This document shows, in pieces, positions 6,593 through 54,083 of a stretch of 64,000 nt of DNA. The stretch is taken from NCBI RefSeq assembly GCF_004010195.1, contig NC_057752.1, forward strand, positions 3,776,726-3,840,725. The letters run 5' to 3'. Source of the stretch: Chiloscyllium plagiosum (Eukaryota). The position numbers and the translations under genes were made by a program. How positions within the stretch are numbered: position 1 is the first letter of the stretch; each line of letters opens with the position of its first letter. A model generated the notes under the pieces. The model was not told the DNA's origin. It ran no database searches and was given only the letters and a program-made list of their open reading frames with translations.

Positions 6593-9045
6593 CGCTATGT
6601 TGGTTACGATGTCCTCCCAGATTGGATTGGGCCGTCCACGATCATTCTCCAGGGTCACAAAAACATGAACAGCCACATGACACAGGAGAAAACCAACATC
6701 TACAGACTTGTATCTCAACTGGAGTGGAAGATAGACACAACTATTCTGAGGTTGGACGATCTGTTTTCAGTAATGCAACAATCACTTACACAGAGGCATT
6801 GCACAGCTGTGATATAAAACAAAACTTCCTTTCATCTGCTTTCCACTCGGAAGAGTACACTCCTATTCCACTGTGGCATTCCTGTTCCCGTCTCATCATC
6901 TTTCCGAGTAAGATTGACAATCGAGTGCCAATTAGTGCTGAATTACAGGCAACTGTGTGCTCTGGACTCTTATCTATTTGAAATTCAGTAGTCCAAACTA
7001 ATTTCACTTGGGCCTCCTGTACCTGTCACAGTTAAGACTTGCAGCCATCAGTCTGAGCTGATAAGCCTGTGTTCCAATTCGCGACATCACCCTGTTCCCC
7101 TTTTGAAACTACTGCTAAATAATAACACTTCATCCACCACAAAGCAGATTGTCCTTCTTATCAACAATTTCACCAATCATCGGCTTCTGAGCTATCTTTC
7201 CCGCAGCTGCACTCACTTTATTTATTGAAAAGTTTCAGAGGACAGTGAAGGATCTGAAAAGCTTATGAGAGTTGTGCAAAGGCCAGAGAACACACAAGAG
7301 AAAAGAAAAAGAGAGAATTAGACTTCAAAAGAGAAGACAGGGGAATGCAAAATGAGGTAAAGTCAGGTGACTGAAGCGCTGAAGTGTTTGAGGGCTAGTC
7401 AGAGAGACTGGAATCAAAATGAACTCCCATGAAGGTAAAACAGCTAAAAGGACAAGGGAGACCGCTGCAATATATCGGACCAATCAATGGCATTTCAAGC
7501 TCGAATGAGAGGCACTTTATCCAAATCCACCAAATGGGAAATCCATGCAATTGGCCAGAATGTTACTTTTACATCACAACAGAAGTCAAAGTTAAGTGGA
7601 GTATAAACTCAGTGCCTAATCCCATTGATTTCCTCTATGCATGTTAGGTTAAAATGACCACAATTTGGCTCCCTGGTTAAAAAATAGTTTTACACGTAAT
7701 TAAATAAGTATCCTTGGCAGTGTTCCTGAATAGTGGAATGCAGCAAAATACCTGATGGTTACTATCATTTTGTTCTGGGGTTGCAGCTGGATACGAGGTA
7801 TCCACTACTCAAGCCAAGTCTCTATCCAACCAGTTATCTGTCATGGCCGCTTCCTGCTTTTGGATTGGTCAGAATGAGAAGATCGCAAACCAGAGCGCCA
7901 GCATTTGGCAGAAGCAACATCTTATTACTGGGATCGTGAGGAGACCCATAAGGGGAAAAAAAACCCCACTGTCAAACTGCAGTAAACATCTGCAAGAACC
8001 ATGAATGATTTTGCAAGCGCAGACACAACAGATCAGTGAAGCAAGTAAGATAAATGGATCCACGAGACAACTAGATGTGCTGCTGAAAAAAAAAGAGATT
8101 GATGTGTTTTGTTTAGTCAGCCAGGTGTCCAAAACACACGTAAACCAATCACTAATCTTTCGAGCATTCAAAGCAAGTGAGTCAGAAATCCATGCAGGTA
8201 GGTTATGGTGCACACATTCAATCCTGATAGGGATATATTGTCACAAATGAGAAGGCCTGCTACCTTCAATGACTAATCTACTCCTTAAGACTTCACTTAG
8301 TGAGTCACAGTCTGTGGACACTGTGGACACGCCTGATTGGGCATGAGATAATTACATTTGCCCCCAACCCCCCAAAAAAGACGGCTGTGTTCAAATCTTC
8401 CTTCACCAGGTCTGCCATCTTGATTTTAAAGAGATTGCCCTCCTCTTTCCACAGTCCCATAAAGTTCACAATTCGTTGGCCAAACTGCAAATGTTTTTGT
8501 TCAGTGCCAGGAGCTTTCATTACTTGCAGGATGAACATCACAGCTTGCCAAATGTGTGCGCGCACATTACCTCGAAAAAGACGATAGAAAATTGGAATTG
8601 AGATGAATGAGAGGGTCAGTTTGTTGGCTGAAAGGAGCTCTCCCCGATACTAAAATTTCTTATGTTCCCAAGACGTATCGATGTCTAAAGCCTTGCATTA
8701 TTAAGAGTTTAGAATTCCAAAAAGTGCATTGTGACCACCAAAACATGGATTTGTCGAGCACCTTTGAATGCCCCAAGATGTTGCACAACAACACTTTTGA
8801 GTCATATAATGAGGCATGAGGGCAGGTGACCAAAAGGTTAATTAAAGAGGTTGAAGGTCAAAGCTATTATACTAATCTGTCTGTTATAGGCTGTTGCTCA
8901 CTTCTGCTAGTTAATGCTCTCATTATTAGTGTACTGATTGTAACAAGGTCAGTCAGGTGGACCTCAGAATATGAGTTCCCTGATTGGGGCTGTTAACCTG
9001 GTCCAATCAGGGCACCCTGACTGACAGAGAAAAACAGGAGTGTCA

Positions 9046-9313
9046 CACTATACATACACAAACAGATGTTGTGGGGAAAATATAAGCACCACTGCTGTTC
9101 GGTAGTAGTGTGGGGGAATAAGAAAACAAACAAACAGAGGATTCCAAAGGGCTCCTCAGTCTAGGGACAGGCTTTGAGTGGGCTAGTTACAGCCCATGTA
9201 CAGGGCACATATAAATAAAGGGTGACTTAGTGATGGGATACCGGCCTCTGTGCAGTTTATTTCAGTGGTGACGGGAGAAAAAAATGAAAAAAGAAGAAAA
9301 AGAAATAGAAAGA
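9046..9313 (+). mobile_element. Tx1-clade LINE 3' tail plus transduced LTR half, PBS and poly(A), inserted in the Gypsy 5' LTR
   Basis: 9046-9116 matches 15681-15753. It is followed by an LTR 3' half ending ttatttca (9264), PBS-like tggtgacggg and an A-rich tail. Flanked by aaacaggagtgtca / aaaaagaagtgtca (12 of 14 identical). Confidence 0.75.
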
Positions 9314-9445
9314 AAAAAGAAGTGTCAGAGATTCTCACAGTCTAAGCGTTGGCTTTGAGGGAGCTGGACTAATTTCAAGAACTTTCAATGTGTAAATAAA
9401 GGATGACTTGGTGAAGGGATATCAACTTCCATGCTGTTACTTCAG

Positions 9446-9455
9446 TGGTGACGAG
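9446..9455 (+). promoter_or_regulatory. Primer-binding site, probably tRNA-Ser(GCU)
   Basis: TGGTGACGAG immediately after the LTR end, one CpG-type change from TGGCGACGAG, the complement of the vertebrate tRNA-Ser(GCU) 3' end CUCGUCGCCA. Confidence 0.7.
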
Positions 9456-10170
9456 TAAAACACATTCCTGAAGAAACTCACTTGCAACATTGTCTTTGAG
9501 TTGGGGTAAGCATTTCTGGCACCATGCCATTATTAGTGGAGCTTGACCCATTTGATCCTGTTGAAAACAGCCCAGTATGTGAAAAGAATGTGTTATTTTC
9601 TTTCCTGGAAAATGACATTGGGGCAAATGAAAAGCAATGAGTAATTCTCCTGACAGTTTGTGGACCCGCAGCTTTTTCAGTTATTAGGAGCTGAACTTTC
9701 CCTGAGGCACCAGGTACTAAAACTTTTTAAGAGTTGATGGATTTGGTTCCCAAACCTCCTCTATTCTGAGACACTACTGGTTTTACTTGGCAATTCAAGA
9801 ACCAGTGGAATCCATACTGGCATTTTTGACAAGATCAAGATGGCTGGCAGAGGCATGTGACTTTGGTTTAACCCTTAATGAGATGTTGAGAGACTGGTTG
9901 GAATGTGGGATTAATGGTGTAACCATGCAAAAATGCTGAAGCCCAACATGACTTCAAACAGGCACTCCAACTGGCTTTGTCATTAGAAAATGTGGCAATT
10001 GGAGCATATGAGTTACAGAGGATGCCGGTGGAAGTGGGCATCATTGCCAGTTTGACTGAGCTTGGAGGACACCATTTCAGTGAAAGCAATTGCATAGCCT
10101 CACTCAGGACATATCCTGAACAGAGGGACTTTAGGTCAGCGCACAGCAAAACCCCAAAGTAAACCCAGCC

Positions 10171-10606
10171 TATAGGGAGAGGCTGAACAAGCTGGGGCTG
10201 TTTTCCCTGGAGTGTCGGAGGCTGAGGGGTGACCTTATAGAGGTTTACGAAATTATGAGGGGCATGGATAGGGTAAATAGGCAAAGTCTTTTCCCTGGGG
10301 TCGGGGAGTCCAGAACTAGAGGGTATAGGTTTAGGGTGAGAGGGGAAAAATATAAAAGAGACCTAAGGGGCAACTTTTTCACACAGAGGGTGGTATGTTT
10401 TTGGAATGAGCTGCCAGAGGAAGTGGTGGAGGCTGGTACAATTGCAACATTTAAGAGGCATTTGAATGGGTATATGAATAGGAAGGGTTTGGAGGGATAT
10501 GGGCCGGGTGCTGGCAGGTGGGACTGGATTGGGTTGGGATTTCTGGTCGAAATGGATCGGTTGGACCAAAGGGTCTGTTTCCATGCTGTACATGTCTATG
10601 ACTCTA
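10171..10606 (+). mobile_element. CR1 3' end inserted in Gypsy gag
   Basis: ORF 10255: GESRTRGYRFRVRGEKYKRDLRGNFFTQRVVCFWNELP, followed by the CR1 3' UTR ending atgactcta. Confidence 0.9.
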
Positions 10607-13600
10607 AATGGTTAAAATTTCCTTCAGAATCTGGGCCGGCAGGCCATTGTATTTGCTGCTGATATGCGGGTTCGAGTCAGCAAAAGAGGCCTATTAGGCC
10701 TGAATTGAGTAAGAGAACTCAGAGGCCGGTATCCAGGAGCGTGCACACCTTGGAAAGCCACCTACATCTGGCTTGGAACAGCTACATTGGTTCTGATTTG
10801 GATGTTGCTAAACAATCAAAATAAATGTCTGGTTAAATGGTCACCCAGTTCTAATGGAGGTTGATACCGGCACGGCTGTATCAGGGATTGTGGAACCAGT
10901 CTTTAACAAACGTTGCTCTGAACCCCAACCACTAAGTTTGTGCATGACCTCAGCCAGACTGAGAACCTATACCGGGGAATCTTTACACATTAACGGTACA
11001 GTTTCTGTTCCAGTCTCTTATGAGAAGCAGCTGGTTCAGTTCCCACTGAGTGTAGTAAAAGGCTCAGGCCCAAGCTTGGTGGGTGAAACTGATTCACCGT
11101 GATTGGCTCAACATTTTCCAAATAGAAAATGGCTGCCTGAGTGAACAACTAATTAAATACCCAGAAGATTTTCAGGAAGGTCTAGGGATTGTTAAAGGAG
11201 CCAAGGCTACCTTGCATGTTGACCAGGACACAGTTCCATGATTCTCTAAGGCCCACCCAGTGCCATATGCCTTATGGGCAAAAGTAGAGGCAGAAATCAG
11301 GGAGACTGGAAAGGGAAGGAATCATCAAACCAGTCCAGGAATGGGCAGCACCAGGCGTACTGATTGTGAAGCCCGATGGGTTGGTTTACCTTTGTAAGGA
11401 TTTTATACAAACAGTGAATAAATACCCAATCTCTCATGTAAAGGATTTGTACACAAAACAGGCTGGGGGTGGGGGATGTCCTTTATGAAGCTAACCTGCA
11501 ACTGCGATTAGATGAGGATTCCCAGAGGTATGCTACAATTAATACCCATAAGGGCTTGTGCCAATATACAAGACTGCCATTTGGGGTATCATAGCATGTG
11601 CAATTTTTCAGCGGACGATGGAGAGCATTTTACAAGGTCTACCTCAGGTTGCCATTTATCTAGATTATATGCTAATAACAGGGAAGACCAATAAGGAGCA
11701 CTTAGAGAACTTGGACATAGTCTTTAGATGTTTCTCTCAGGTGGGCGCATGCCCAATAAGGGACACTTGCATGTTCCAGGCATTCCAAAGTGACCTCCTT
11801 GGGCTACAGAGTCAGCATTATAACTGTTGAAAGATAAAGTGAGGGCGATCAAAGGGGCCCCGGATCCCAGGACTGTACCAGAGCAGATGCATTGAGCAGG
11901 CTCCCACTGGCAGATACTTCACCAGTGGTACCATCATTGGAAGTTTCTGTAATGGTTTTAAATTTTCTGGACACACTTCCAGTCACAGCTGACAATATCA
12001 GACTTTGGTCACAGAAAGATCCCATCCTGGCAGAACTGAAACAGCTGGTGGGGATGGGGGAAACCAAAGGGCCATCACAATCTGTTACACATCGACTATG
12101 CAGGTTCGTTCATGGGTTCAATGCTCTCAGTCACTATGGACCGTCATTAAAAGTGGTTGGGCATGCACAGAGTTCATTTGTCAAACACAGGGACAATGAC
12201 AGAAAAACTGTACAAATCGTTTGCAATACATGGACTCCCAGAAGTGTTGGTCACAGATAACAGGCTATCATTTACCAGCAGGGAATTTCAGTATTTCCTA
12301 CAGTTGAATGGCATTTGTCATAAGGACAGCTCCATACCATCTAATGGTCTGGCAGAAAGAGCAGTCTAAACTTTGAAGGCAAGCTTGAAGAAACAGTTGA
12401 CAGCCTCGCTAGGTACCAAACCTCCTGGTTCCTGTTTGATTATTGGACTATTCCCTCCAACCTTGTAACTACAGGGATAGCACCAGCAGAGTTTTAATGG
12501 GGAGAGGACTCCACACCAGGTTAACTTGGATCTTCCCGGACCTGGGGTAGGCGAAGGGTGAAATGGCATCAGAAATGCCAATGTTGAACATAAGACTCTG
12601 CCAAGCAGAGACAGTTTACTTCAGGGGACAAAGTTTGGTGTGGGAACCAAGGGAATGGCCCTGCATGGGCAAGAGGCATGGTTGATGCGAGGTCAGGTCC
12701 ACTGATGTATAAAGTTCGGGTAGGTGCTATGGTCCTGAACAAACATGTGGACTATATGAAAGCTGCAAACTCACAAACAATGTGGGAGCAAAACATACCC
12801 AGCTCCTCAGAGCAGTCAGAAAGGCTGGCAGAACCCATGGGTTCTCCCTCTCCATCCAGCATTGAAGCCACCTTGGTATCGGAGATGGTCACAGCGAACA
12901 CCGCTACCCTGACACCTTTACCGCCTGAAGAGGAGAATGAATTTCTCCTGAGCTGCATGAGGTGAACTTCTGTGCGTTACACACAGCCTGTATCCAAGGC
13001 CGAGCCAGAGGATCCTGACCTGGTGCTAAAATGCCCCAGGAGGAGCTACAAGATAAAGGACCAGCCTATGTCCTCGAACTGAGAGGGGAAGGGATGTTGT
13101 GATTGTATCGAGGTCAGCTAGGTAGACCTCATAGAATGAGTTCCCTGATTGGACCAGATTAATAGCCTTAATCAGGGAGCCCTGGCTGACAGATATAAAC
13201 AGGAGGGTCCGAGGCTCTGTTCACTCTGAGAGAGCTAGATCAATATTAAGGACTCTCCACGTATCAATAAAAAGGGGGGTCTTGGTGATGGGACATAGGC
13301 CTCTGTGGAGTCATTTCTGTTAGATCCCTGAATTCTGATATTTTAAATGAACAGGTCAGACTTTCTGACAATATCCAATGGAGTGATACCCATCATTAAA
13401 CCCAGGAAAAACACAGTCAACACGGGGAGTGCAGATCAATAAAGTATGAGTGATTGTCAGAAAGCCAAAGTTGGAATTCTTTCAGCTCTGCCCTGGAAGT
13501 CAGACAGTTGAGTCACTCTGGTTTTAATTTTGAAAGCTGGAAGCTATACTGGGCCAGTTTGGACAGTGCCCAGTTGAAAGATGGTCAGAAGGATTTTGTT

Positions 13601-14059
13601 TTTGTTACATGTTAACAATGTAAGAAGCACTTTCAAAGAGGTAATTTATGATTGGATGGGACCTGTTCTATTTCAAGTCTTTTTACAAAAAAAATTGCTT
13701 AAATGTCTAATTAGGGGATCTTGGTATTCTCCTTAAACTAATTACTGCAGCAGCCAGTCAATATCCCTGGCTTTTATGCTTGCTCAGGCAAGGAAATTGT
13801 CACTGTGTGGCACTCACTTTACCAAGACAGAGCACTCTTAGACTAATTTGATTTCAATCTCATTAAGAGTAGATGTATGTCAAGTGGGAACCACTTAATC
13901 CAACCACTTGCTTTGTTGTGTTCAATGATCAATTGACTCAAAAGAGGTTTTGCAACTAAATAAAAATGATTGACTCTATGTGAGAAAGAGTGAGCTAGGT
14001 GTTATTCAAAGCACTGATGACAACTGGAAGAAATATAGAATGCATGTCAGAAAGGAATT

Positions 14060-14750
14060 CTCATCCCAAACTAGAAAAATCAAAGGAAGCCCAGGTGAGG
14101 AATTCATGGAATCTTTTCAGGATTTTGTTTAGAACACCATGTACTGGAGCCAACCAGAGAGCAGACTATAATAGATCTGGTATTGTACAATGTGATAGAA
14201 TTAGCTAATGACTTCAGTGTGAAGACATCTTGCAGCAGCAGTGATTAGATTTTACATTCAGTTTGTGGGAGAAAACAGTGGATGTAAGGTTCCTAATTTT
14301 AAATGTAATTAGGAGGGCACAAAAGCAGAGCTAATTAAAGTGAGCTGTAAAGTGGGGCCTTGTTAAAGTCCAAACTGTTCCAGAGGTGTGCCAAAACACA
14401 TCTGAACAGGATGACTTAAAGATTATTGATGCATTCTAACAAAGTAAAAATTTCAGTTTAACTAAAAGATTAAAGACCGTGTCAAACTTGAAGAAAAAAC
14501 ATGTAATTATACAAAGAGGGGTGGTACATGAGAATGGACAGAATATAAACAGCAGTAGCAATGAATGACTTTAGTTTTTCTTTTTTTTTAAAAAGGGTTC
14601 AGGGAAAGCTAGCTAAAAACATTAACACAAATACAAGAATGTCTGTAGATAGTCTAAAGAAGATAAGTGTTAACAAAGCAGGTCCCACAGAAAGTGAGTC
14701 TGGGGAATTAATGTCAAATAAGCAGCTGGCAGACTTCATTTACAGTTACT
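14060..14750 (+). mobile_element. Old, heavily degenerate CR1 ORF2 fragment (endonuclease-linker region)
   Basis: Residual motifs (EPTREQTIIDLVL-like, GPTESESGELM) across frameshifts. Appears to continue at 15955-17575. Confidence 0.55.
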
Positions 14751-14819
14751 TGGCTTTTTTTTTCTTTGAAAATATATAACCAGGAAAAACAAATGTCTTC
14801 CTTTTAGATAAGGGGAAAG

Positions 14820-14935
14820 AAAAAGAAACTCTCTCCTCCAAAGCAGAGACTAACAGTAGCAGTGACACACTGACTGTGGCCCAGCCAACACAGTCAGTCC
14901 CCTAAACTGAGGAGATTCTCATCTCCTGGTTATAT
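14820..14935 (-). mobile_element. Fragment of Gypsy-family LTR
   Basis: gtcagtcccctaaactgaggagattctcatctcctggttatat matches 53737-53776 and the LTR 3' half. Confidence 0.5.
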
Positions 14936-15014
14936 TTTTTTTACAGGCATTTTGCATCTGTTTTTGGGGTCAGAATATTTGGAAGCTTGTCACTGTGACG
15001 ATCTGGAACAATTC

Positions 15015-15325
15015 TTTTATTCGTTCGTGGGATGTGGGCATCACTGGCTCATCTGTCCATCCCTAATTGCCACGTCACTGTGAGTCTGGAGTCCAAGCCA
15101 AGTAAAAGCAGCAGTCTCCCACCCTTGAGGATATTAGTGAACCGGATGGGTTTTAATCTGACGGTCAGCAAAAGTTTTATGGACATCATTAGACCCCTAA
15201 TTCTACACTTCTATTGAATTCACATTGTGCCATCTACCATAGTGGGATTCCGAACCTGGGTCCCTAGAATATTGCCAGGGTCTCTGGACTAAATCAAGTG
15301 ATTATACCACTAGGCCATTGCCTCC
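15015..15325 (-). mobile_element. tRNA-headed SINE (same family as 2012/3987)
   Basis: Minus strand ggaggcaatggcctagtggtataat head through to the cccacgaacgaataaaa tail. Confidence 0.75.
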
Positions 15326-15333
15326 TTGCATTT

Positions 15334-15892
15334 TACAGTGATTTTTGCATTGGTCTTCTGGAGTGGTTGAAACCAGGTGGACCTTTATTGATTGGCTCAG
15401 GTTAACAACTGGAGGTTCTGGTTGACAAATATTACCAGGTGATTTCCAATCTTCTGTGGTTATGTCAGAGCCTGGGTGTCCCTGGAAACCAACACCGTGG
15501 AGCTGTTTGGAGTGGAGATTTAACCCTTGCCTTCCCTTCCCTTTCACTGTTTGATCATGCAGCATTGCCCTTTGATTTGAAAGGCACTGCTTGTCACTAG
15601 CCACCTGGGTGCTTCCTTTCTTCCTGTTGGTGGAAATTTGAATAAAAACTCGTGCACCTTGTGTCTCTGACTGTGTCCCACACCTGCGCATGCACACAAT
15701 ATGGGTGCTGGGGAAAAAATAAGCAGTAGCACAGTTAGGTGGTAGTGTGGGGGTGAACAAATTAACAGGGGATTCAGACTCTCCTCAGTTCAGCGGATGG
15801 ACTTTGACTTGGCTGGTTACAGCCAGTATACTATGCATAAGTAAAGAAAGAGGGAGTTGGTGATGGGACACTGGCCTCTGTGCAGTTATTTC
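15334..15892 (+). mobile_element. Solo Gypsy-family LTR interrupted by a Tx1-clade insertion
   Basis: ccaggtggacct...ctggttgacaaatat at the 5' side and ggtgatgggacactggcctctgtgcagttatttc at the 3' end match the LTR family. Confidence 0.7.
15445..15760 (+). mobile_element. 5'-truncated Tx1-clade (L1 group) LINE: ORF2 C-terminus and 3' UTR
   Basis: Reads FCGYVRAWVSLETNTVELF, which I recognise as resembling the C-terminus of Tx1-type ORF2 proteins. AATAAA at 15641. Flanked by attaccaggtgatt / attaacaggggatt (12 of 14 identical). Confidence 0.7.
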
Positions 15893-20494: not shown

Positions 20495-21692
20495 CTGTTG
20501 TGGTTCTGGTCGCCGAGCTGGGAATTTGTGTTGCAGATGTTTCGTCCCCTGTCTAGGTGACATCCTCAGTGCTTGGGAGCCTCCTGTGAAGCGCTTCTGT
20601 GATGTTTCCTCCGGCATTTATAGTGGTTTGTCTCTGCCGCATCCGGTTGTCAGTTCCAGCTGTCCGTTGCAGTGGTCGGTATATTGGGTCCAGGTCGATG
20701 TGCTTATTGATTGAATCTGTGGATGAGTACCATGCCTCTAGGAAGAAACTATGGTCTCATTCGATGTAACGGCACTGTTCACCTCTATCGACAAAACCCT
20801 AGCCAGAGAAACAATAGCCAACCTGCTGGACATAGAGAACAGACAACAGGACGGTGAACCTATCAACAAAGACGGCATACTCAAACTACTGGACCTGTGC
20901 CTCACAAAACACTTCACATTCAACAACCAAATATATGAACAAATCAACGGCACACCCATGGGCTCACCCATCTCTGGACTCATAGCAGAAGCGGTAATAC
21001 AAAGGTTAGAACAAACAAACCGTCTTACTGCAAATTCAACCCAAACTCTGGGTCAGATACGTGGATGACACCTTTGTAATCATTAAAAACACAGAAATAG
21101 AGAACACACACCGGATCATCAAAGCCACACTCACAGGAATCCGATTCACCAGAGAGTAAAAAATGGACAACCAACTCCCATTCCTAGACGTGAGGTTACA
21201 GAGAACACCGAACGGAGAATTCACCACAAAGGTACACAGGAAAGCCACACACACAGACCAAGTCCTGAACTACGAAAGCAACCACCCCAACNNNNNNNNN
21301 NNNNNNNCATGCCGCAACCCAAAGGACTAGCCACACTACCATACATCAAGAGCATTTCTGAACTGACAGCCAGACTACTGCGACCACTAGGACTCATAAC
21401 ATGACACAAACCGACAGCCACTCTCAGACAACAACTCACCAGAACGAAGGACCGGATACCCAGCATGAGCAAAACCAATGTGGTGTACAAAATCCCATGC
21501 AAGGACTGCACAAAACACTATATAGGACAAACAGGAAGACAGCTAACGATCCGCATCCATGAACACCAACTAGCCACGAAACGACACGACCAGCTATCCT
21601 TAGTAGCCACACACGCAGATGACGAGCAACATGAGTTCGACTGGGACAGCACTACTATTATAGGACAAGCCAAACAGAACAGCCAGGGAATT
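20495..21692 (+). mobile_element. Penelope-like element (Poseidon type): inverted pLTR, RT and GIY-YIG remnants
   Basis: MVSFDVTALFTSI...YEQINGTPMGSPISG...WVRYVDDTF, and NVVYKIPCKDCTKHYIGQTGRQL. 20495-20740 is an inverted copy of the element 3' end. Contains an N gap at 21292-21307. Confidence 0.93.
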
Positions 21693-22132
21693 CACAGGAT
21701 ACTAGCAGCCAGAGTTTGCTTTGAGCACATACACCATTAGAAAAGCTTCAACAGCACAAACTGATGGCTGCATTAGATCCATATTTGTTCATCAGTTGAA
21801 TTATAAACTTTCCCTGATTTGTCAGAAATCACTCGTTTAAAATCTTGAGGCTGCAAATGTGTAGGAAACTGAATTTTTAAAAAGAACAAGATTAATCAAA
21901 AGCAATTTTACTTTTTAATTATTCTTCATGAATTTGGGTGTTGTTAGCAAGGCCAGCAGTTTTCACTCATCCCTCACTGAGAAACTGATGCTGAACCATC
22001 GTCTTAAACCATTGTAATCCTTCTGGTGCAGGCACACTGACAGTGCCATTAGGAAGGAAATTCCACTTTGATCCAACAATACTGTGATGTAGTTCTCAGT
22101 CAGAATGGTGTGTGAATGCTTACTATGTTCAG

Positions 22133-28444: not shown

Positions 28445-30475
28445 CATACAGCACAGAAACAGACCCTTCGGTTCAACTGACCAGGTATCCCAATCTGACC
28501 TAGTCCCTTTTGCCAGCCCTTGGCCCATATCTCTCTCAACCTTTCCTATTCATGTACCCATCCAGATGCCTTTGAAATGTTGTCATTGTACCAGCCTCCA
28601 CCACTTCCTCTGGCAGCTCGTTCCATACACGCACCACCCTCTGTGTGAAAAAAGTACACCTCGGGTCCTTTTTAAAATCTTTCCCCCCTCTCCTTTTTCA
28701 CCTTCGTCCTCTAGTTTTGGACACACTCACCCTTGGAAAAAGACATTGTCTATTTATCCTATCCACGCCCCTCATGATTTTATAACCTCTAAGGTCACCC
28801 CTCAGCCTCCGACGCTCCAGGGTAAAAGCCCCAGCCTGTTCAGCCTCTCCTTATAGTAGAAACCCTCCAGTCCTGGCAACATCCTTGTAAGTCTTTTCTG
28901 CACCCTCGGGTTTAACATCCTTCCTATAGGAGGGCAACCAGAATTGTACATAGTATTCCAAAAGTAGCCTCCTCAATGTCCTGTTTAGCTGTAACATATC
29001 ATCCCAACTCCTGTACTCTATGAACTGATCAATAAAGGCAAGTATACCAAATGCTGCCTTCACCACCCTATCTACTCCACTTTTTAATGAACCATGCACC
29101 TGCACCCTTAAGGTCTCTGTTCAGCAACACTCCCTAGGGCCCTACCATTAAGTGTGTAAGCCCTGCCCTGGTTTGCCTTACCAAAATGCAACAGCTCACA
29201 TTTTATCTAAATTAAAATCCAGCTGCCACGCCTCGGTCCATGAGCCCATCCGTTCAAAGTCCCATTTTACTCTGAGATAATCTTCTTCACTGTCCACTAC
29301 ACCACCTATTTTGGTGTCCTCTGCAAACAAAGAAAATTTACAGCTCAGGGACAGGCCCTTCGGCCCTCCAAGACTGAGCTGATCCATATGCACTGTCTAA
29401 ACCTATCACCCAATTCCTAAACATCTGTATCCCTCTGCTCCCCACCTACTTATGCACCTGTCCAGATGCATTGAAAATGAATCTACCGTGCCTGCCTCTA
29501 CCACCTCAGCTGGCAACGCGTTCCAGGAACCTACTACCCTCTGCGTAAAGTACTTGCCGTGTGTATCCCCCTTAAACTTTTCGCCTCTAACCTTGAATGT
29601 GTGATCTCTCATTATTGAATCCCTCACCCTGGGGGAAAAAGCTTATCTCTATCTTCCCTGCCTATATCCTTTTTGTAAATCTCAATCAGGGTTCCCCCTA
29701 AATTTCCTTTTTTTTTTCTAACAAAAACAATCCTAACCTACTCAACCACTCTTTATAGCTAGCACCTTCCATACCAGGCAACATCCACGCAAACCTTCTC
29801 TGCACCCTCTCCACAGCGTCCATAGCCTTTTGGTAATGTGGCAACCAGAACTGTACACCAGAACCTACTAATCATGCCTGCATTCACATCCAAATCACTT
29901 ACATAAATGACAAAAAGCAGTGAACCTCACACCAATCTTTGGCACACTGCTGGTCACAAGCCTCTAGTCTGAAAAGTAACCTTCCACCATCACCCTCTGT
30001 CTCCTAGCCTGAAGCCAATTTTGTATCCAATTGGTTATCTTCCCCCTGCATCCCATGTGATCTAACCTTACTAACCAGTCTACCATGTGGGAACCTTGTC
30101 GAATGCTTTGCTGAAGTCCATATAGACAGTGTATACCACTCTGCTTCATCAATCTTCTTTGTCACCTCTTCAAAAATCTCAACCAAGTTAGTGAGACATG
30201 ATTTCCCACGTACAAAACCATGCTAACTGTTCCTGATCATTCCTTGCCTTTCCAAATACACACCCATCCTGTCCCCTAGAATCTCCCCAATATCTCACCC
30301 ACCACTGACATCAGACTCACCAGTGTGTAGTTCCCTGGCTTTTCCTTACAGCCTAAAATAATGGCACCACATTAGCCACCCTCCAGTTTTCCAACACCTC
30401 ACCTATGGATGTCAATGACGCAAATATCTCAGCAAAGGGTCCAGCAATCACTTCCCTAGCTTCCCAGAGTTCTGG
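28445..30475 (-). mobile_element. CR1 3' half with a second CR1 subfamily nested at about 29329-29860
   Basis: RT remnants (FAEDTKIGGVVDSEE, EEVTKKIDE, QRVMVEGYFSD). The host reading is broken at tctgcaaac and resumes at aacctacta. Confidence 0.88.
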
Positions 30476-32149
30476 GAAACATGCATCATGAAGTCACGGT
30501 GACGAAAGTATTGGTAAAAGGTAAATAAGATTCATTTTAAGTATCATGATTTAATCCTCAGTTTAAGTATTACAGGAACCAGACTGCAGCTGTCAATGAG
30601 AATTTTAAAGAAGTCCACTGCTCCTGTGAATTGATTTGACAGGCCGTCTGGTGGAGCTTAGAAAGAAAAAGACCATCTGTTCCTCCAATTTCAGTGTTGA
30701 CATTTCCCAAAAGTTTGTCATTCTAGCTGAGCCCATTATGAGTGATTTCCAAATTCTCAAAAGCTCCAAACCCACTTATCTTAGGGGGGAGGTAGGTTAA
30801 GTTAATATTGTTATTGGCAGCTTTATTAGGCTTAAGGATTTACAGTCTTTGTGGTTTGTGAATAGAGATTATCTTGTCCTCGAACAGATTCACCACTTTA
30901 AATGATTTTAAAATGTTGATTGGGTTTCATGAAACCCAAACCTTTTTTTCCAGTATCAAGTAGGTATTAGTGAGAATTTTCTTAGGGAGGTAGAAACATC
31001 ATTTCTTTCCATCTCCATGTGGTCCCTCAGCTCCGCCCTTCGCAGAGACTGGAGGTGGCATGGGGGTTATTAGATGGCTTGCAGAGGTGATATGAGAAGG
31101 CCTAACAGCCCCTTATAAAACTGGACTGAGGTTTCTCAGCCACCTCAGCATTTGCCTGCCTCCATGTTTCTCTCCGAGAGGTCAGATTCGATCACCCTCC
31201 TCCAATAACCCCCTCCCCAAGCAAGAAGAAACCTCATCCGTGCAGAGGTTGTTTTCAAAGAGACAGATCTCCTGAGCCAAGAGATTTTCTGACTTGAGCT
31301 TCTTGTCTGTTCAGCAAAACAATCTGGCCCTTAGCCATGATTGTCATGTCGGAAATGTGGCTGCCAATTTAATTATAAGGAATTTTATTTTTTTAAAAAA
31401 AAGAGAGCAAGAGGCTGTCAGAGGATGGAGATGTCTCTGTCACTTAAGCTAGAATGGGTAAAATGTAGCTCAGGCTCCCACTCCTGATCACATTTGCTGT
31501 GAGTAAATTTCTGCTGACCAAAAGTGGATGCGTGGATATTGGGGTGAGCACAGTTCTGTGATGGAGTCCCACTGTGATGGCCTCCAGACAAATTGCACCA
31601 TACCTTGGCCCTTCCTTGAAATGTTCCAATGGCTTCAATAGAAAAAGAATGGGATGGCGGAGGTAAGGTGTGCTGGGTGGGGGTGATGGCTGTTTTGTGG
31701 CGGGGGGAGGTTTCGGGGGGGGGGGGGAGAGACATCCAGGTAGTTTATCCTTACATAGTCACAATTAAACAACTTGTTTTTCACAGCAATTAGCACTGCC
31801 TGAACTGCTATAGAGCAGCCTGGAAGCCAATGTGGGCATCTTCATACTGTTTTGAGCTGCTGCTTTGCGTACAGTTGAAGTTTAGGCAAGTACATTGAAC
31901 CATTTTTACGAAACTGTCATTGTTTGGTCTGCACATGTGAATTGTACAGTGCAGAGAGGCTATTGTGAGTTGCCTTTTCGAACTGCTGCAGACCATGGGC
32001 GTGAAAATCATTGCAGCTTTGATTCAATGCAGTTCCTTGTGATGCCATTTCGGAAGTTAGTTAAGAACCATATTGCTATGCATCTGAAGTTTCATAGAGG
32101 AGAGGACATGACAAACAGCGTCATAGTCAAACATTTGTACATCACGGAA

Positions 32150-32567
32150 CTCCTCCATGCCAACCAGATATCCCAATCTGACCTAGTCCCATTTGCCAGC
32201 ACTTGGCCCATATCCCTCTCAACCCTTCCTATTCATATACCCATCCAGATGCCTTTTCCAATGTTGTAATTGTACCAGCCTCCACCACTCACTCTGACAG
32301 TTTGTTCTATACACCCACCACCCTTTGCATGAAAACATTGCCCCTCTGGTTCCTTTTAAATTTTATTTCCCCCTCTCACTCTAAACCTATGGCCTCTACT
32401 TCTGGACTCCCCCACCCTGAGGAAAAGACCTTGACTATTTACCCTTTCCATGCCCCTCATAATTTTATAACCCTCTATAAGGTCACCCCTCAGCCCCCGA
32501 TGCTCCAGGGAAAACAGCCTCTCCCTATCGCTCAAACCCTCCAACCCTGGCAGCGTCCTTGTAAATC
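32150..32567 (-). mobile_element. CR1 3' end
   Basis: LRGDLIEGYKIMRGMERVNSQGLFLRVGESRSRGH. Confidence 0.88.
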
Positions 32568-34192: not shown

Positions 34193-36015
34193 CATAGAAC
34201 ATTACAGGGCAGTACAGGTCCTTCAGCCCTCTGGTTCCACAGGTCAGTGCAACATAATCTGAAGCCCATCTAACCGACACTATTTCATTCTCGCCCATGT
34301 GCCTATCCAATGCCCATTTAAATGCCCTTAAAGTTGGCAAGTCTACTACTGTTGCAGGCACTGCGTTCCACACCCCTACTACTCTGAGTAAAGAAACTAC
34401 CTCTGATATCTACCCTAAATCTATCACCCCACCATTTCAAGCTATGTCCCCTCGTGCTTGCCATTACCATCCAAGGAAAAAGGCTCTTACTGTCAGCCCT
34501 ATCTAACCCTCTGATTATCTTTGTATGCCTCTATTAAGTCACCTCTCAGCCACCTTCTCTCTAACAAAAACAGCCTCGAGTCCCTCAGCCTTTCCTCATA
34601 AGACCTTCCCTCCATACCAGGCAACATCCTGGTAAATCTCCTCTGCACCCTTTCCAATGCTTCCTATAATAGTGACCAGAACTGTACACATTACTCCAAG
34701 TGTGGCCGCAGCAGAGTTTTGTACAGCTGCAGCGTGACCTCATGGTTCCAAAACTCAATTCCTCTACCAATAAAAACTAATACACCGCATGCCTTCTTAA
34801 CAACCCTGTCAACCTGGGTGGCAACTTTCAGGGGTCTATGTACATGGACACCAAGATCTCTCTGCTCATCTACACTACCAAGAATCTTACCATCAACCCA
34901 GTACTCTGTGCATTCCTGTTACTCCTTCCAAAGTGAATCATCTCTCTCTTTTCCACATTAAATTCCATTTGCTACCTCTCAGCCCAGCCCTGCAGCTTAT
35001 CTGTGTCTCTCTGTAAACTACAACATCCTTCAGCACTATCCACAACTCTACCAACCTTAGTGTCATTCACAAATTTACTAACCCATCCTTCTATGCCCTC
35101 ATCCAGGTCATTTACAAAAATGACAAACAGCAGTGGCCCCAAAACAGATCCTTGCAGTACCCCACTAGTAACTAAATGCCAGGATGAACATTTCCCAACA
35201 ACCACCACCATCTCTTCTTTCAGCTGGCCAATTTCTGATCCAAACTGCTAAATTGCCCTCAACCCCATGCCTCTATATTTTGTGCAATAGCCTCCCATGG
35301 GGAACCTTATCAAACGCCATATTGAAATCCATATACACCACAACAACCACTTTATTCTCATCCATCTGTTTGGTCACTATCTCAAAGAATTCAGTAAGGT
35401 TTAAAGTATGATCTACCCTTCACAAAAGCATTGACTATCACTGATCAACTTATTCCTTTTGTAGATGATAAATCCTATCTCTTATCCTTTCTAACACTTT
35501 ACCAATAACAGAAGTGAATCTCACTGGTCTATAATTACCAGGGTTGTCTCTACTCCCCTCCTTGAAGAAGGGGAACAGTATTTGCTATCCTCCACTCTTC
35601 TGGCACTATTCCTGTAGACAATGACGACATAAAGATTAAAGGCTCGACAAGCTTCCCAGAGAATCCTAGGATAAATCCCATCCAGCCCAGTGGACTCATC
35701 TACTTTCAAACTTTCCAGAATTGCTAACACCTCCCTTGTGAACCTCACTCCCATCTAGCCTAGTAGTAGCCTGTATCTCCATATTCTCCTTGATAACATT
35801 GTCTTTTTCAAGTGTGAATCCAGATGAAGAATATTCATTTAGCACTTCCCCATCTCCTCTGACTCCACACACAACTTCCCACTACCATCTTGATTGGCCC
35901 TAATCTTACTCTAGTAATTTGTTTTCCTGATATACCTATAAAAAGCCATAGACTTAGGGTTTTCCTTGATCCAATCCATCAATGACTTCTCATGTCCCCT
36001 CCTGGCTCTTCTTAG
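34193..36015 (-). mobile_element. CR1 ORF2 3' half
   Basis: SGVLQGSVLGPLLFVIFVNDLDEG...KFVNDTKVG, STGLDGIYPRILWEA, WNAVP. Confidence 0.9.
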
Positions 36016-36019
36016 ATAT

Positions 36020-36452
36020 CCTAAATTAATCTAGTCCCATTTGCCAGCATTTGGCCTGTATCCCTCCAAACCCTTCCCATTCATATAGCCATCCAGATGC
36101 CTTTTAAATGTTGTAAATGTACGAGCCTTCACAATTTCCTCTGGCAGTTCATCCCATACACGCACTACTCTCTGTGTGAAAACATTGCCCCTTAGGTCCC
36201 TTTTGTATCTTTCCCTCTTTCTTTTAAACCCACGCCCTCTAGTTCTGGACTCCCCTACCCTGAGGAAAAGATCTTGGTTATTTATCCTCTCAGTGTCCCT
36301 CACGATTTTATAAACCTCTATAAGGTCCCCTCAGCCTCCAACACTCCAGGGAAAACAGCCCCAGCCTGTTCAGCCTCTCTCTCAATAGCTCAAACCCTCC
36401 AACCCTGGCAACATCCCTGAATCTTTTCTGAACCCTTTCAAGTCTCACCATC
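36020..36452 (-). mobile_element. CR1 3' end
   Basis: GESRTRGRGFK...DLRGNVFTQRVVRVWDELP. Confidence 0.88.
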
Positions 36453-38041
36453 TTGTTAACATTATCCAACTGCTCTCTTTCAAACAGTATCGTGGGAATT
36501 TCTTTTATCCTCACAAGTGAGAAGGTGGACCATCGTTTAATGTCTCATTTGAAAAACAGCAACTCTGACAGTGCAACATTCCCTCTGTCCTGCACTGGAG
36601 TATTGGCTCATACCTTTGTGCTGAATCTCCAGAGTGGGGTTTGAGTCCACTGACTTCTTTCAGCGATTGGTAGATAATAGAAAGGCTCCAAAGTTGGGTC
36701 TTAAACATATGGTATATTGAAACGTTTTTCAGCAGGACCGAAGATAAATAAGTGTGGAAATCGGAGGTTTTAGTTTTGCTAGCATTATTAGAAAAACTTT
36801 TTCTGCATTCTACCTCTGATTACTAACGTGAGAGTAGCAGGATTGAATCAGCTGACTGCATGCTCATATTTCATTTACAGGGGCTTATTTGTATACAAAT
36901 TGCCCTTCCAGTGTTGCTGAATTATAATTAGATTTGAGAAAACTGAGCCACAGCTGTCCAGTCATGAGATCCATCAATCAAACCTACAATAAGATAATTA
37001 TGAAGAGATGCAGTGATGAATTCTATAATTAAATTGTGTATCATCAGTGAATAGCTTTCATGAAGAGGCCACTAAATGCTTCATTGGGAAGCTGCAATTT
37101 TGATCGATCAACAGGAATGCCAAAATCAATACTGCAGTATTTGTATGGATCACTTTCCCATTGTAGGTCTGGCGTCTAATTGCATCTGTGTGAGCTTTTT
37201 ACTCTCCCTGGCTCTAAACTAGGTCATTGATTGTTTTACTGTAAAGCATGGCTTAATTGCGGTAACAACTGTAATAATATGAGTGGATCATTCTACTTAT
37301 TTGACTTTAGTCCTGTCATGGATAGTAACTATGTCGGGATTGGGTATCACAGTGGATTATTCCACTGGCCTTCCATCTTTTGGTCGAACTAAACCCAAAG
37401 TGATGGGATGCTAGAAGTTCTTCACTGAAGACAATAAAGATGTCAAAAATCATGACAGGATAAAGAGGTATCATAAAAGTCATGAATATGCAAGGTACCA
37501 ATTTTGTAAAGTGACCAACTATTGGTTGTACAACAGAGACCTGTGTGGCAGCCAGATTTTGATGAGTCATACTGCACTGGCATTCTCAGAATGAGCTAAC
37601 AAGGAGACAGAAACACCATGCTGGAAACCGGATGTAATAAGAAATCCTGAGTATTAAAGGTAACATAGACAGTGCTTTGGCCTACCACTAATGTGCTATT
37701 TCCCAAATCAGAGGACATGTCCTTTATTCTTCCATTTCCACAGTAATAATTTGGATTCAGCAATAGAAAGGTCCAAGGCCAACTTAATTTTTCTGGAGAA
37801 AGTGTTCCTGTGCAAACGCAGTTTCTTCTCACATAGTGAGACATAACTTAACTCTTGCATATTGAAGGCTCTTTCTGCCCTGTCATATGTTGTAAAAGCG
37901 TTTTCTTCAGTACAGTTCAACTGGTCATCCTTCATGTTCAAAACGAGGCAGCCAGTGCTGCCTTTGTGGCATACAGTCCAGACTAAACTTTAAACTACCT
38001 TTAAGACAGTTAGATGACCTCACAATATAATTTATATCTGT

Positions 38042-38849
38042 GAGAAGACTTGTAGCTCGGGTGCTCGTTGTTGTGGTTCTGTTCACCGAGCTGGGAATTT
38101 GTGTTGCAGACGTTTCGTCCCCTGTCCAGGTGACATCCTCAGTGCTTGGGAACCTCCTGTGAAGCGCTTCTGTGATGTTTCCTCCGGCATTTATAGTGAT
38201 TTGTATCTGCCGCTTCCGGTTGTCAGTTCCAACTGTCCGCTGCAGTGGCCGGTATATTGGGTCCAGGTCGACGTTTGTTGACAGAATCTGAACTGACAGC
38301 CAGACTACTACGATCACTAGGACTCATAACAGCACACAAACCAACAGCCACTCTCCAAAAACATCTCACCAGGACAAAGGACCCGATGCCCAGCATGAGC
38401 AAAACCAATGTAGTGTACAAAATCCCATGCAAGGACTGCACAAAACACTACATAGGACAAACAGGAAGACAGCTAACTATCCATGAACACCAACTAGCCA
38501 CGTAACGACACGACCAGCTATCCTTAGTAGCCACACATACAGATGACAAGCAACATGAGTTCGACAGGGACAACACTACTATTATAGGACAAGCCAAACA
38601 GAGAACAGCCAGGGAATTCCTAGAGGCATGGCACTCATCCACAGATTCTATCAACAAACACATTGACCTGGACCCAATATACCGGCCACTGCAGCGGACA
38701 GCTGGAACTGACAACCGGAAGCGGCAGAGACAAACCACTATAAATGCTGGAGGAAACATCACAAAAGCGCTCCCAAGCACTGAGGATGTCACCTAGACAG
38801 GGGGCGAAACGTATGCAACAAAAATTCCCAGCTCGGCGAACAGAACCAC
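38042..38849 (+). mobile_element. 5'-truncated Poseidon-type PLE: inverted pLTR, GIY-YIG remnant and pLTR
   Basis: NVVYKIPCKDCTKHYIGQTGRQL. 38072-38272 is the reverse complement of 38662-38850. Perfect 13-bp TSD aatttatatctgt (38029-38041, 38850-38862). Confidence 0.93.
38106..38145 (-). ncRNA. Type I hammerhead ribozyme core in PLE pLTR
   Basis: Minus strand GCA-CTGAGGA-TGTCACCTGGACAGGGGAC-GAAA-CGTC-TGC: stem I GCA/TGC, stem II GTC...GAC, intact core. Sister copies at 38777-38816 (+) and 20533-20572 (-). Confidence 0.7.
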
Positions 38850-39885
38850 AATTTATATCTGTCCCATCTTCAGCCACGACCTCTGTCTAAATAGTCAGTG
38901 TAGTCACTGAGTTACATGTATAAAATACAATAATTTCAGTAAGCACAGAACCCAGACTGTGTTGTGTGTAACTGTGGTATTGTCGCCAGGTAAATACTGT
39001 TGTTAATAAATTTCAAGACATCTGCGTCAACAAGGACCCATCTCACTTCTGTAAATGTTATGTGGACTAATGTACACAAAGCCACCATGTTGTGGTAGCA
39101 ACAAGTAACCTGTTTTAAGAACTAGTTATGACAAATACTTAGTACAGTAACTGGACACGAAACGCTGTGAATTTGACAGCAACAGAGCATTTGTGAAAAA
39201 TCTTTCTTCCCAATCCATCAATTCATCCAATTTCAAAGCTGAAGTGACGAGTTAAAACTAAAGGCTACAAACCTGTAGTGAGGCACAGTGAGCTGTCTGA
39301 AAACAACTGAAAATGCTTGTAGAACAAAATACAGATTTTAAAAACACTAAACTTTTAAAAAAAAAACTTTTCTATACTAGGAAGTGGCAAAACCACCATC
39401 AAGACACACACCTTTCATTACCTAACACCGTATAAAATAGCGCACAAGATGTTATCACTGCTTCTTTTGTGGTGCAAGTGCCATCTATGGCACAAATCGA
39501 ACTTTAAAAGGGGCAATGATATGTAATAGGGAAAATAAAGAAGCTGACATTTAATAAAAATACAGAACTCTAGACTAGCCTAGCCAGCAACATCCACATC
39601 CTATGTGTGGGCAAAAAAAAATTCTTGCATGAACATTTCAAAGAGCATAAATCCACACAAAAGAAAGATGGAAAACAACCATCCAACCATGGATGGTCAA
39701 TCCATTGACGTTCTGTCAGAACTTCAGTTATTTAAAGAAAGAATCAATCTTTACTTCATGGATCAGCAAGTAATGACAGGTTGTCAGCCTTCCTCTGGCT
39801 TTGAGCACTGAAAGGTTAAGAATAAAATCCTCCAGTACTTTTGATGACAAATGCAAAGATTCTGTCAAAAATCTGAAAAGTTTTG

Positions 39886-40455
39886 TCGAGAGGTCATGTG
39901 GCTGTACAGGACATTGGTGAAGCCACTGTTGGAATATTGCGTGCAATTCTGGTCTCCTTCCTATCGGAAGGATGTTGTGAAACGTGACAGGGTTCAGAAA
40001 AAATTTACAAGGATGTTGCCAGGGTTGGAGGGTTTAAGCTACAGCCCTGGAGCGTCAGAGGCTGAGGGGTGACCTTTAGAGGTTTATAAAATCGTGAGGG
40101 ATATGGATAGGATAAATAGACAAGGTCTTTGCCCTGGGGTGGGGGAGACCAAAACTAGAGGGCATAGGTTTGGGGTGAGGGGAGAAAAGTTTATAAAAGG
40201 GACCTAAGAGGCAACCTTTTCACGCAGAGGGTGGTACGTGTGTGGAATGAGCTGCCAGAGGAAGTGGTGGAGGCTGGTACAATTACAAAATTGAAAAGGC
40301 ATCTGGATGGGTATATGAATAGGAAGGGTTTGGAGGGATATGGGCCAAGTGCTGGCAAATGGGACTAGATTAGGTTGGGATATCTGGTCAGCATGGACGG
40401 GTTGGACCGAAGGGTCTATTTCTGGGCTATACATCTCTATGACTCTGTGACTCTA
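39886..40455 (+). mobile_element. CR1 3' end
   Basis: LYRTLVKPLLEYCVQFWSP...WNELPEEVVEAG. 3' UTR ending atgactctgtgactcta. Confidence 0.9.
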
Positions 40456-45571: not shown

Positions 45572-46808
45572 GTTCGTAAGTTTGCAGATGACACCAAAAT
45601 TGGGGGTGTAGTGGACAGAGAAGAGGGTTACCTCAGATTACAACAGGATCTTGATCAGATGGGCCAATGGGCTGAAAAGTGGCAGGTGGAGTTAATTTAG
45701 ATAAATGCAAAGTGCTGCATTTTGGGAAAGCATGGTGGCTCAGTGGTTAGCACTGCTGCCTCACAGCACCGGGGTCCCAGGTTCGATTTCAGCCTCGGGC
45801 GACCGTCTGTGTGGAGTTTGCACATTCTCCCTGTGTCTGTGTGAGTTTTCTCTGGGTGCTCCGGTTTCCTCCCACAATCCAAAGATGTGTAGATTAGGTG
45901 AATTGGCCATGCTAAATTGCCCTTAGGGCGAGGTGTATTAGTCAGAGAGATATGGGTCTGGGAGGGTTGCTCTTCAGAGGGTCGGTGTGGACTGGTTGGG
46001 CCGCAAGGCCTGTTTCCACACTGTAGGGAATCTAATCAAATCTTAGCAGGACCTGTACACTTAATGGTAAGGTCCTTGGGAGCGTTGCTGAACAAAGAGA
46101 CCTTGGAGTGCAGGTTCATAGCTTCTTGAAAGTGGAGTCGCAGGTAGATAGGATAGTGAAGAAGGTGTTTGGTATGCTTTCCTTTATTGGTCAGAGTATT
46201 GAGTACAGGAGTTGGGAGGTCATGTTGCGGCTGTACAGGACATTGGTTAGGCCACTGTTGGAATATTGTGTGCAATTCTGGTCTCTTTCCTATCAGAAAG
46301 ATGTTGTAAAACTTGAAAGGGTTCAGAAAAGATTCACAAGGATGTTGCGAGGGTCGTAGGGTTTGAGCTTTAGGGAGAGGCTGATCAGGCTGTTGCTGTT
46401 TTACCTGGAGTGTCGGAGGCTGAGGGGTGACCTTATAGAGGTTTACAAAATTATGAGGGGCATGGATAGGATAAATAGGCAAAGTCTTTTCACAAAGTTG
46501 GTGGAATCCAGAACTAGAGGGCATAGGTTTAGGATGAGAGGGGAAAGATATAAAAGGGACCTAAGGGGCAACTTTTTCACGCAGAGGGTGGTACGTGCAT
46601 CGAATGAGCTGCCAAGGGAAGAGGTGGAGTCTGGTACAATTGCAACATTTAAAAGGCATTTGGATGGGTATATGAATAGGAAGGGTTTGGAGGGATATGG
46701 GCTGGGTGCTGGCAGGTGGGACTCTATTGGCTTGGGATAACTGGTCAGCATGGATGAGTTGGACTGAAAGGTCTGTTTCCGTGCTGTACATCTCTATGAC
46801 TCTATGAC
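45572..46808 (+). mobile_element. CR1 3' portion, interrupted by HE1
   Basis: KFADDTKIGGVVD, RLYRTLVRPLLEYCVQFW, SRTRGHRF...FFTQRVV. 3' tail tctatgactctatgact. Confidence 0.92.
45730..46037 (+). mobile_element. HE1 (V-SINE)
   Basis: gcatggtggctcagtggttagcactgctgcctcacagc head, V-domain, tail tttccacactgtagggaatctaatc. Confidence 0.9.
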
Positions 46809-53645: not shown

Positions 53646-53860
53646 CTGAAAAAACTGCACAGAAGCTAGGTCCTGTCACTAAGTCGCTCTTTATTTACTC
53701 GTGTACGGTACACTGCCTGTGGCCAACCAGCTCAGAGTCAGTCCTCAACGGAGGAGATTCTAATCTCCTGGTTACATTGGTCAGCCAAGGCTTTCTTGGT
53801 TGAGATTATTAACATGGGCCAATCATATTTAATGAGGTCCACCTCTTTCCAATCCGTACA
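53646..53860 (-). mobile_element. Solo Gypsy-family LTR
   Basis: Bounded TGTA...TTCA on the minus strand. Shares ggtggacctca, ggctgacc and taaataaag with the other LTRs. Confidence 0.7.
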
Positions 53861-54083
53861 GGTTCAGAATGAGACAGGGCTGTTTGCATCCAACAATTAG
53901 GTCAGACACTTGAGCAATTGCCAATTTTAACATCATTGACATGCTGGTAATAACTATTCTTGTCTGAGAGGCCCCTTTCAAGCATAGCCCTAAACCTCTT
54001 CATTAAAGCTGACTCTGCCTCAAACAGTCATACTGTTTCTAAAGAACCCATGACAGTTTGCCAGTGAAGTACCCCAGGAGTTC

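Follow-up and report, generated by a model that had tools for sequence, protein, structure and literature searches.

The stretch analysed here, a window of 64,000 nucleotides (nt) of Chiloscyllium plagiosum DNA (contig NC_057752.1, positions 3,776,726 to 3,840,725), contains between positions 8930 and 15892 two long terminal repeats (LTRs) of a Gypsy-type retrotransposon family that both carry the 3' tail of a long interspersed element (LINE). This raises the question of whether a LINE of the Tx1 clade, as a preliminary description of the window had proposed, has specialised on a single site within an LTR and, if so, what it gains there. We regard targeting of this LTR site by a Tx1-clade LINE as near certain. 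The LINE inserts in sense orientation, repeatedly, just after the TATA-like box of the LTR, and we propose, with a probability of roughly 60%, that it borrows the LTR as a promoter and as a back-up poly(A) signal. Throughout, LTRs and elements were compared using natural copies.

Two LTR insertions and the identity of the LINE

As noted before, the 5' LTR starting at 8930 and the solo LTR starting at 15334 share a non-LTR tail: 9072-9116 is 80% identical to 15709-15753 over 45 bp. Duplications of about 14 bp could be read directly at both insertions, namely 9032-9045 (AAACAGGAGTGTCA) with 9314-9327 (AAAAAGAAGTGTCA) at the first, and 15431-15444 (ATTACCAGGTGATT) with 15761-15774 (ATTAACAGGGGATT) at the second, the copies being identical at 12 of 14 positions in each case. 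Both insertions match the empty site of the 3' LTR (GATATAAACAGG, 13192-13203), so that the equivalence of their positions, claimed previously, holds as well. Apart from this 3' LTR (13095-13318), two further LTRs in the window are empty (~1797-2000 and ~53646-53870, both on the minus strand). The features, in which A and B denote LTR subtypes, F2 a non-coding family and L131 a natural LINE copy, both described below, and PBS a primer-binding site, are as follows.

8930..9045, plus strand: U3-like upstream half of the 5' LTR, ending in the first duplication copy (9032-9045); 78.6% identical to 13100-13209.
9046..9133, plus strand: 5'-truncated Tx1 3' tail (to 9116) and A-rich tract; 70% identical to the tail of L131 and 80% to 15709-15753.
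9134..9278, plus strand: 3' half of a type-B LTR plus PBS-like word, flanked by an A-tract on either side and probably brought in by the LINE through 3' transduction; 76% identical to 1800-1905 and 72% to 53646-53756 (both minus strand), the subtype being unlike that of the host duplication.
9279..9444, plus strand: second A-tract, second duplication copy (9314-9327) and host LTR 3' half ending TTCA; by direct reading and BLAST.
9445..13094, plus strand: decayed Gypsy-type internal region with PBS-like word, protease, reverse transcriptase (RT) and integrase remnants in this order, and purine tract; by Pfam and PDB matches.
13095..13318, plus strand: 3' LTR with empty target; TATA-like word at 13194-13199, C of CAGG at 13200, initiator-like A 23 nt further on, AATAAA downstream.
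14829..14942, minus strand: A-tract, type-B target and 5' head of the F2 passenger; by-eye comparison with F2 5' ends.
15334..15444, plus strand: degenerate upstream half of the solo LTR, start approximate, ending in the duplication copy 15431-15444; assigned by position and motif, since it gave no BLAST match to other LTR upstream halves.
15445..15760, plus strand: 5'-truncated Tx1, with the end of open reading frame (ORF) 2 at 15450-15486, 3' untranslated region (UTR) and tail at 15517-15753, and a short A-rich tract; 84% and 80-84% identical to L131, 85-90% to 40 genomic matches.
15761..15892, plus strand: second duplication copy (15761-15774) and type-B solo LTR 3' half; 74% identical to 53648-53786 (minus strand).

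The first insertion is thus composite: the tail (9046-9116) is followed by an A-tract, by the 3' half of an LTR of a different subtype with its own PBS-like word (9135-9278), and by a second A-tract and the duplication. Since the host LTR is of type A, a duplication cannot account for the type-B 3' half and PBS-like word enclosed by the two A-tracts, and this piece is likely the product of 3' transduction.

A genome search with 15600-15753 yielded 1,664 candidates; the 40 that were scored had, the window itself aside, 85-90% identity. A 22-nt word from the tail had 1,657 exact matches in the genome and its control none; as the word was present in only 15 of 30 search-derived tails, the LINE family must be larger than the exact count. 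Walking upstream from such tails reached near-complete natural copies. In L131, ORF2 matches that of Xenopus laevis Tx1L over nearly its whole length (endonuclease, RT and C-terminus) at 42-54% identity in three frames, and the RT of L120 shares 62% identity with Tx1L (query coverage 97%). In a midpoint-rooted RT tree of 24 chosen rows, which included neither L1 nor the crocodilian Tx1-8_Crp and Tx1-4_AMi, the LINE pairs with a stingray protein (99/97), its nearest named relative there, within a clade (100/100) that takes in Tx1L and sturgeon and turtle proteins. Membership of the Tx1 clade is thereby confirmed. Human L1 ORF2 scores far below Tx1L (116 versus 507 bits, in different searches). 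The N-terminal APE endonuclease of ORF2 is present (54% identity to Tx1L residues 1-79), and the motifs LNING, LQETH, GDFN, SRID and DH were seen in natural copies. A separate ORF1 with a CCHC knuckle is a trait of the clade. That of L131 encodes 288 amino acids with such a knuckle (CHLCREVRHVRKNC); it had no family in Pfam, and a database search gave one match covering 20% of its length. A poly(A) tail, 5' truncation and target duplication were all seen among the sampled copies.

Targeting of the LTR site across the genome

To what extent the LINE is bound to this site was addressed with the first 100 exact tail matches in coordinate order and two more within a retrieved stretch (102 tails in 81 loci), loci being scored with an LTR library cleaned of LINE flank. 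The A-tract was followed by the target, defined as at least 8 positions of the natural LTR target 10-mer, in 71 of 102 tails as opposed to 18 of 266 control A-tracts. The target word was found at 56 loci, a joined LTR 3' half at 45 (a count that may be inflated where short 3' matches are the heads of the next element), the upstream half at 34 and both halves at 29. Any sign of target or LTR was present at 65 of 81 loci, compared with 6 of 216 in a control walk, and 16 loci showed neither by the criteria used. The expectation that tail copies might mostly have unrelated flanks is therefore not borne out. In the window the tail has no further match above chance, in line with the earlier observation that it was not seen outside an LTR there, but this exclusiveness does not extend to the genome: with about a fifth of the loci elsewhere, the specialisation consists of independent insertions at one preferred site, at a preference of about 80%, and is a strong preference and not a fixed rule. 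Kojima 2015 (PMC4494074, in the parts considered) treats a family as target-specific when one flank type occurs in more than 20% of copies; here, an LTR half was joined through LINE, A-tract or target pieces only at 50 of 81 loci, and the upstream half alone gives 34 of 81.

Orientation, judged by the best LTR match within 160 nt of the tail, was sense for 40 tails and antisense for one, the other 61 giving no match (far-flank controls, 15 of 288). The sole antisense case is a 15-bp match to non-LTR flank. Earlier antisense signals proved to be artefacts, caused by an inverted repeat in the LTR upstream half and by LINE flank within one library copy.

The LTR family offers many such sites. A 25-nt LTR-side word has 995 genome matches, and since the exact word occurs in only 7 of 125 other LTR halves, we estimate the family at ~18,000 copies; a 20-bp site in each makes up roughly one 20,000th of the sequence of both strands. 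The first 30 matches comprised 3 duplicates and, by eye, 27 distinct LTR 3' halves, of which 18 were empty, 6 had the tail directly upstream and were thus occupied (6/27), one had an A-tract with Gypsy-derived sequence, and 2 were cut short.

Could the tail instead belong permanently to a single LTR subfamily and have spread with the Gypsy element or through segmental duplication? A few loci are indeed mutual duplicates (L140 and L159, L143 and L165, L142 and L166; L048/L049). The first pair (G000:C1:1913253 and C1:91719846) is identical over the 370 bases viewed, beside an N gap, a possible assembly duplication. However, the 5' ends of the LINE differ between copies, the duplications follow the subtype of their host LTR, and in the window element the 5' LTR is filled while the 3' LTR is empty. 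The variable 5' junctions and empty sites refute this explanation, which can practically be discounted. The tail-to-LTR junction is bridged by contigs of two differently labelled organisms. The 5' truncation points themselves often fall on a GTGT that the duplication end shares with the LINE 3' UTR (window 9040-9050, L039, L056 and L069).

The break points give an indication of how the site is cut. On the top strand, most breaks fall 7-11 nt beyond the C of CAGG, which yields duplications of 12-15 bp; LINE-to-LINE junctions likewise retain a target remnant of 7-11 nt past this C in 67 of 91 cases. Each duplication restores the target and so allows later insertions to pile up in arrays; more than one exact tail was present at 17 of 81 loci. 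On the bottom strand, the APE endonuclease would nick at about 5'-CCTGTTT/AT, and reverse transcription from the poly(A) tail would be primed there. When the LINE 3' UTR was searched for complementarity to the target (word size 5), no match to LTR sequence proper was obtained. By analogy with Tx1L (PMC1950540, in the part considered), recognition would reside in the endonuclease. It seems improbable that the enzyme is instead a loose, L1-like one, for which the LTR site is a hot spot as an open promoter or through pairing of head or read-through RNA with the target. Such an enzyme would fit the resemblance of the bottom-strand word to the L1 consensus TTTT/AA (PMC1950540, in the same part), the fifth of loci at other A-rich sites, and the homology of the heads and transduced pieces, described below, to the target. 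On the other hand, 5'-truncated copies without any head hit the same base, even in arrays with only 13 bp of target left, and the closest characterised relative, Tx1L, has a sequence-specific endonuclease according to that same part of PMC1950540.

LTR-derived heads and the promoter question

Site anatomy was read in 23 empty LTRs, with positions counted from the C of CAGG. In 17 of them there is an initiator-like word whose A lies at 23 nt past C, or 29 nt when counted from the initial T of the TATA-like word; AATAAA, where intact, mostly lies 75-84 nt past C, and the LTR ends near 124-130. The insertion site lies between the TATA-like box and the initiator-like motif, and an insertion parts the two words. 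Judged by standard Pol II spacing, these words would form a promoter and AATAAA would act as the poly(A) signal. The LTR upstream half also has an inverted repeat with two CCAAT-like words (window 8977-9015, 13140-13178 and 1940-1981).

Full-length LINE copies start with an LTR-like head, which ends CAAGGACTCTCC at 71 nt past C and is followed by the element's own 5' UTR. The head is a sense copy of the LTR stretch just downstream of the insertion site, and none of 16 matches to a query of head plus 5' UTR started past the head. A word spanning the head/5' UTR junction had 186 genome matches, of which 30 loci were examined. In 12 the head was continuous with the target, and in 18 a shorter head was fused to a fragment of the 3' UTR of the LINE itself; past the head, 14 continued into ORF1, 15 ended at an A-tract within 125 nt and one reached a gap. 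The alignment to the LTR exceeded the best of 150 shuffles for 25 of these 30 heads, as it did for 27 of 30 F2 heads (see below). The heads carry a GT expansion absent from the LTR copies, so at least its distal part moves together with the element. A long target duplication, considered as an alternative source of the distal head, was rejected on account of this expansion and of the 18 heads that follow non-LTR sequence. Long copies finish in the ordinary tail and target, and L135 is a single full-length insertion in a solo LTR. A 7.2-kb LINE unit, L136 (G000:C18:23918828-23928787), is joined head-to-tail to the next without tail or target. A lineage with terminal repeats, suggested by its head at both unit ends, was dismissed: the other copies followed end in the ordinary tail, whole or shortened, and array recombination explains L136.

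Because the LINE carries a copy of the LTR start region on its front end, it likely borrows the host promoter. The head might restore the start region that an insertion severs from the TATA box, and it might provide homology for 5' joining. Alternatively, the endonuclease would set the target while the LINE relies on a promoter of its own; the LTR would then offer only a safe place to land in many copies, and the head would be left over from a single ancestral insertion 71 nt downstream. We consider this less likely, although several observations fit it. The head ends at LTR position 70-71 in 30 of 30 copies, as expected of one founding event; the 18 shortened heads are fused to 3' UTR pieces; many heads are not near an LTR upstream half; and the LINE 5' UTR is long and GC-rich. 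Difficult to reconcile with it are the site between the TATA-like and initiator-like words with its sense insertions, and the fact that F2 has kept a separate head, from another LTR subtype and ending mostly near position 59.

F2 is a separate non-coding family of ~1.7 kb whose longest open frame has 100 codons. It has 64 (3' word) and 302 (5' word) exact genome matches; by score, 14 of 30 copies have the target at their 3' end, and the 5' search word lies outside the head. A body copy gave no BLAST match in the window. F2 does not appear to be a SINE (short interspersed element) with a tRNA, 7SL, 5S or snRNA head, its head aligning to the LTR and an Rfam search with copies L203 and L220 giving no match; nor is it a second coding LINE, as there was neither an ORF2 match nor a long frame. 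With its own LTR-derived head, F2 may be moved in trans by the LINE protein. In a tandem F2 array (L253-L256, G000:C1:19838093-19843862) the head is chimeric, type-A LTR up to the end word of the Tx1 head being followed by type-B-like F2, and this may link the origins of the Tx1 and F2 heads.

Read-through at the other end was searched for among 173 LTR 3' halves. Twelve long candidates were obtained, of which 5 were set aside on viewing and 7 accepted by eye (L072, L099, L247, L018 at 1152, L275, L058 and the window insertion). In the accepted cases the second A-tract starts 103-159 nt past C, downstream of the AATAAA position of the LTR, and in L058 the carried piece, arranged as in the window insertion, includes non-LTR flank past the LTR end. 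LTR sequence between two A-tracts would then arise by read-through and 3' transduction. Target pieces of 14-65 nt between two A-tracts are common and could be read-through products or long duplications. Many arrays (L065, L070, L108, L128) contain pieces from within the LINE 3' UTR that end in A-tract and target without having the true tail, which could reflect template jumping or tailing of cut RNAs. At L142/L143 (G000:C1:6840751-6841034) and its duplicate L165/L166, a complete LTR, a PBS-like word, ~110 nt of Gypsy leader and an A-rich tract precede a second LTR 3' half from the target; the arrangement suggests that a short Gypsy RNA was inserted there in trans, again at this site.

Several points weigh against promoter borrowing or against the targeting on which it builds, starting with the 16 loci without target or LTR and the possible inflation of the downstream count given above. 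Firstly, the word used to collect Tx1 heads holds 12-13 nt of head, so that this sample is partly selected. Secondly, walks limited to 1.5 kb, which 5 Tx1-head and 8 F2-head arrays exceeded, met an LTR upstream half in no more than 10 of 30 cases for Tx1 heads and 12 of 30 for F2 heads. Thirdly, the heads of L177 and L193 extend upstream of the predicted start, and these RNAs therefore began further upstream, in the array. Fourthly, an exact TATAAA stands directly before the C of CAGG in no more than 8 of the 23 empty LTRs, others having a variant, and the GC-rich 5' UTR could hold a promoter of its own. Finally, RNA data came from a single-cell poly(A) run made on this species or a related one, a second run giving no reads. 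The LINE 3' UTR was covered on one strand (depth up to ~990 versus 10-32) and 92 reads enter poly(A) at the tail, but oligo-dT priming on genomic A-tracts gives the same pattern, and this is therefore no promoter proof. In that run no start or end site stood out and no transcription start could be mapped; no RNA dataset was listed as containing the LINE 5' region.

The borrowing of promoter and poly(A) signal may be part of a closed cycle, a proposal that we put forward tentatively and hold to be somewhat less probable than its failure. The LINE would cut between TATA and start, rebuild the promoter with its own copy of the start region, end its read-through transcripts on the LTR poly(A) signal and carry an LTR-headed passenger along. 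If so, it would act as a brake on the Gypsy family by disabling about a fifth of its LTRs.

Related systems and the host element

Targeting itself is not a new principle, having been described for frog and crocodilian elements; what is new is the presence of LTR-derived heads in two families. A literature search found no account of this Tx1/LTR pair or of LTR-derived Tx1 heads, Repbase and Dfam lying outside the search. The earlier statement that no description was known thus stands for the pair itself, whereas a Tx1 preference for LTR retrotransposons has been published for crocodilians: Tx1-8_Crp and Tx1-4_AMi (Kojima 2015, PMC4494074). The comparison is by description, not by sequence, and the main-text parts compared name neither the LTR group nor the site; the head of Tx1-4_AMi is U1-derived, that of the present LINE LTR-derived.

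From those same parts, Tx1-Mar and SINEU also resemble the present system, in that an autonomous Tx1 and its non-coding passenger insert into the same transposon, as the LINE and F2 do, and tandem insertions sandwich the duplication (PMC4494074). They differ in their Mariner target and snRNA-derived heads. SINEU-2B_Crp has a target-derived 5' extension for which flank transcription was proposed, but it is antisense and confined to one subfamily, whereas in the present system the heads of the LINE and of F2 alike run in sense and derive from the start region of the LTR. Multicopy transcribed units are likewise hit site-specifically by R2 (28S rDNA) and Keno (U2 snRNA genes), and R2 depends on the transcription of its target; their targets are host genes, and the R2 endonuclease is of a different class (PMC4494074 and PMC4640811, in part). 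Tx1 is counted among the target-specific clades in the part of PMC4640811 considered.

The closest characterised relative is Tx1L, which belongs to the same RT clade and likewise inserts at one site of another transposon, there the DNA transposon Tx1D and here an LTR (PMC1950540, in the part considered). The endonuclease hairpin loop is 3 residues shorter than in Tx1L (FVRP---GVGASRID versus YVRVRDGHVSQSRID), and a close relative with another target and another loop should be useful for studying how APE endonucleases choose their DNA. How target-specific LINEs and SINE-like passengers without internal promoters are transcribed was left open in the parts of Kojima 2015 considered (PMC4494074). 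The LINE/LTR system makes this testable: its copies number in the thousands, the putative Pol II promoter is short, the insertion site has been mapped, and target-derived heads occur in two families.

The host of the first insertion is a decayed Gypsy-type element (8930-13318) flanked by a 5-bp duplication (ATTAG/GTTAG). It shows the structural features of Ty3/Gypsy elements: two TG...CA LTRs, the 3' LTR ending TTTCT, one change from TTTCA; a PBS-like word (GTGGTGACG) after the 5' LTR; a purine tract before the 3' LTR; and the short duplication. Pfam matches of the internal region were all below curated cut-offs (gag-asp_proteas, E 0.028; RVT_1, E 1.4e-5; rve, E 2.1e-4), and the weak best PDB matches include Ty3-G Gag-Pol (E 0.046). 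The order of protease, RT and integrase is also found in BEL/Pao. A search with the element gave 9 unnamed relatives; it may belong to the Mag clade.

An unrelated LINE piece (10170-10606) interrupts the internal region. It is one of the abundant 3' pieces of a LINE that we take to be CR1-like, others including 39890-40455, 46216-46812, 28447-29166, 32148-32566 and 36014-36454. Paired repeats of 88-92% identity, direct and inverted, lie at 20496-21693 and 38069-38851 of the window.

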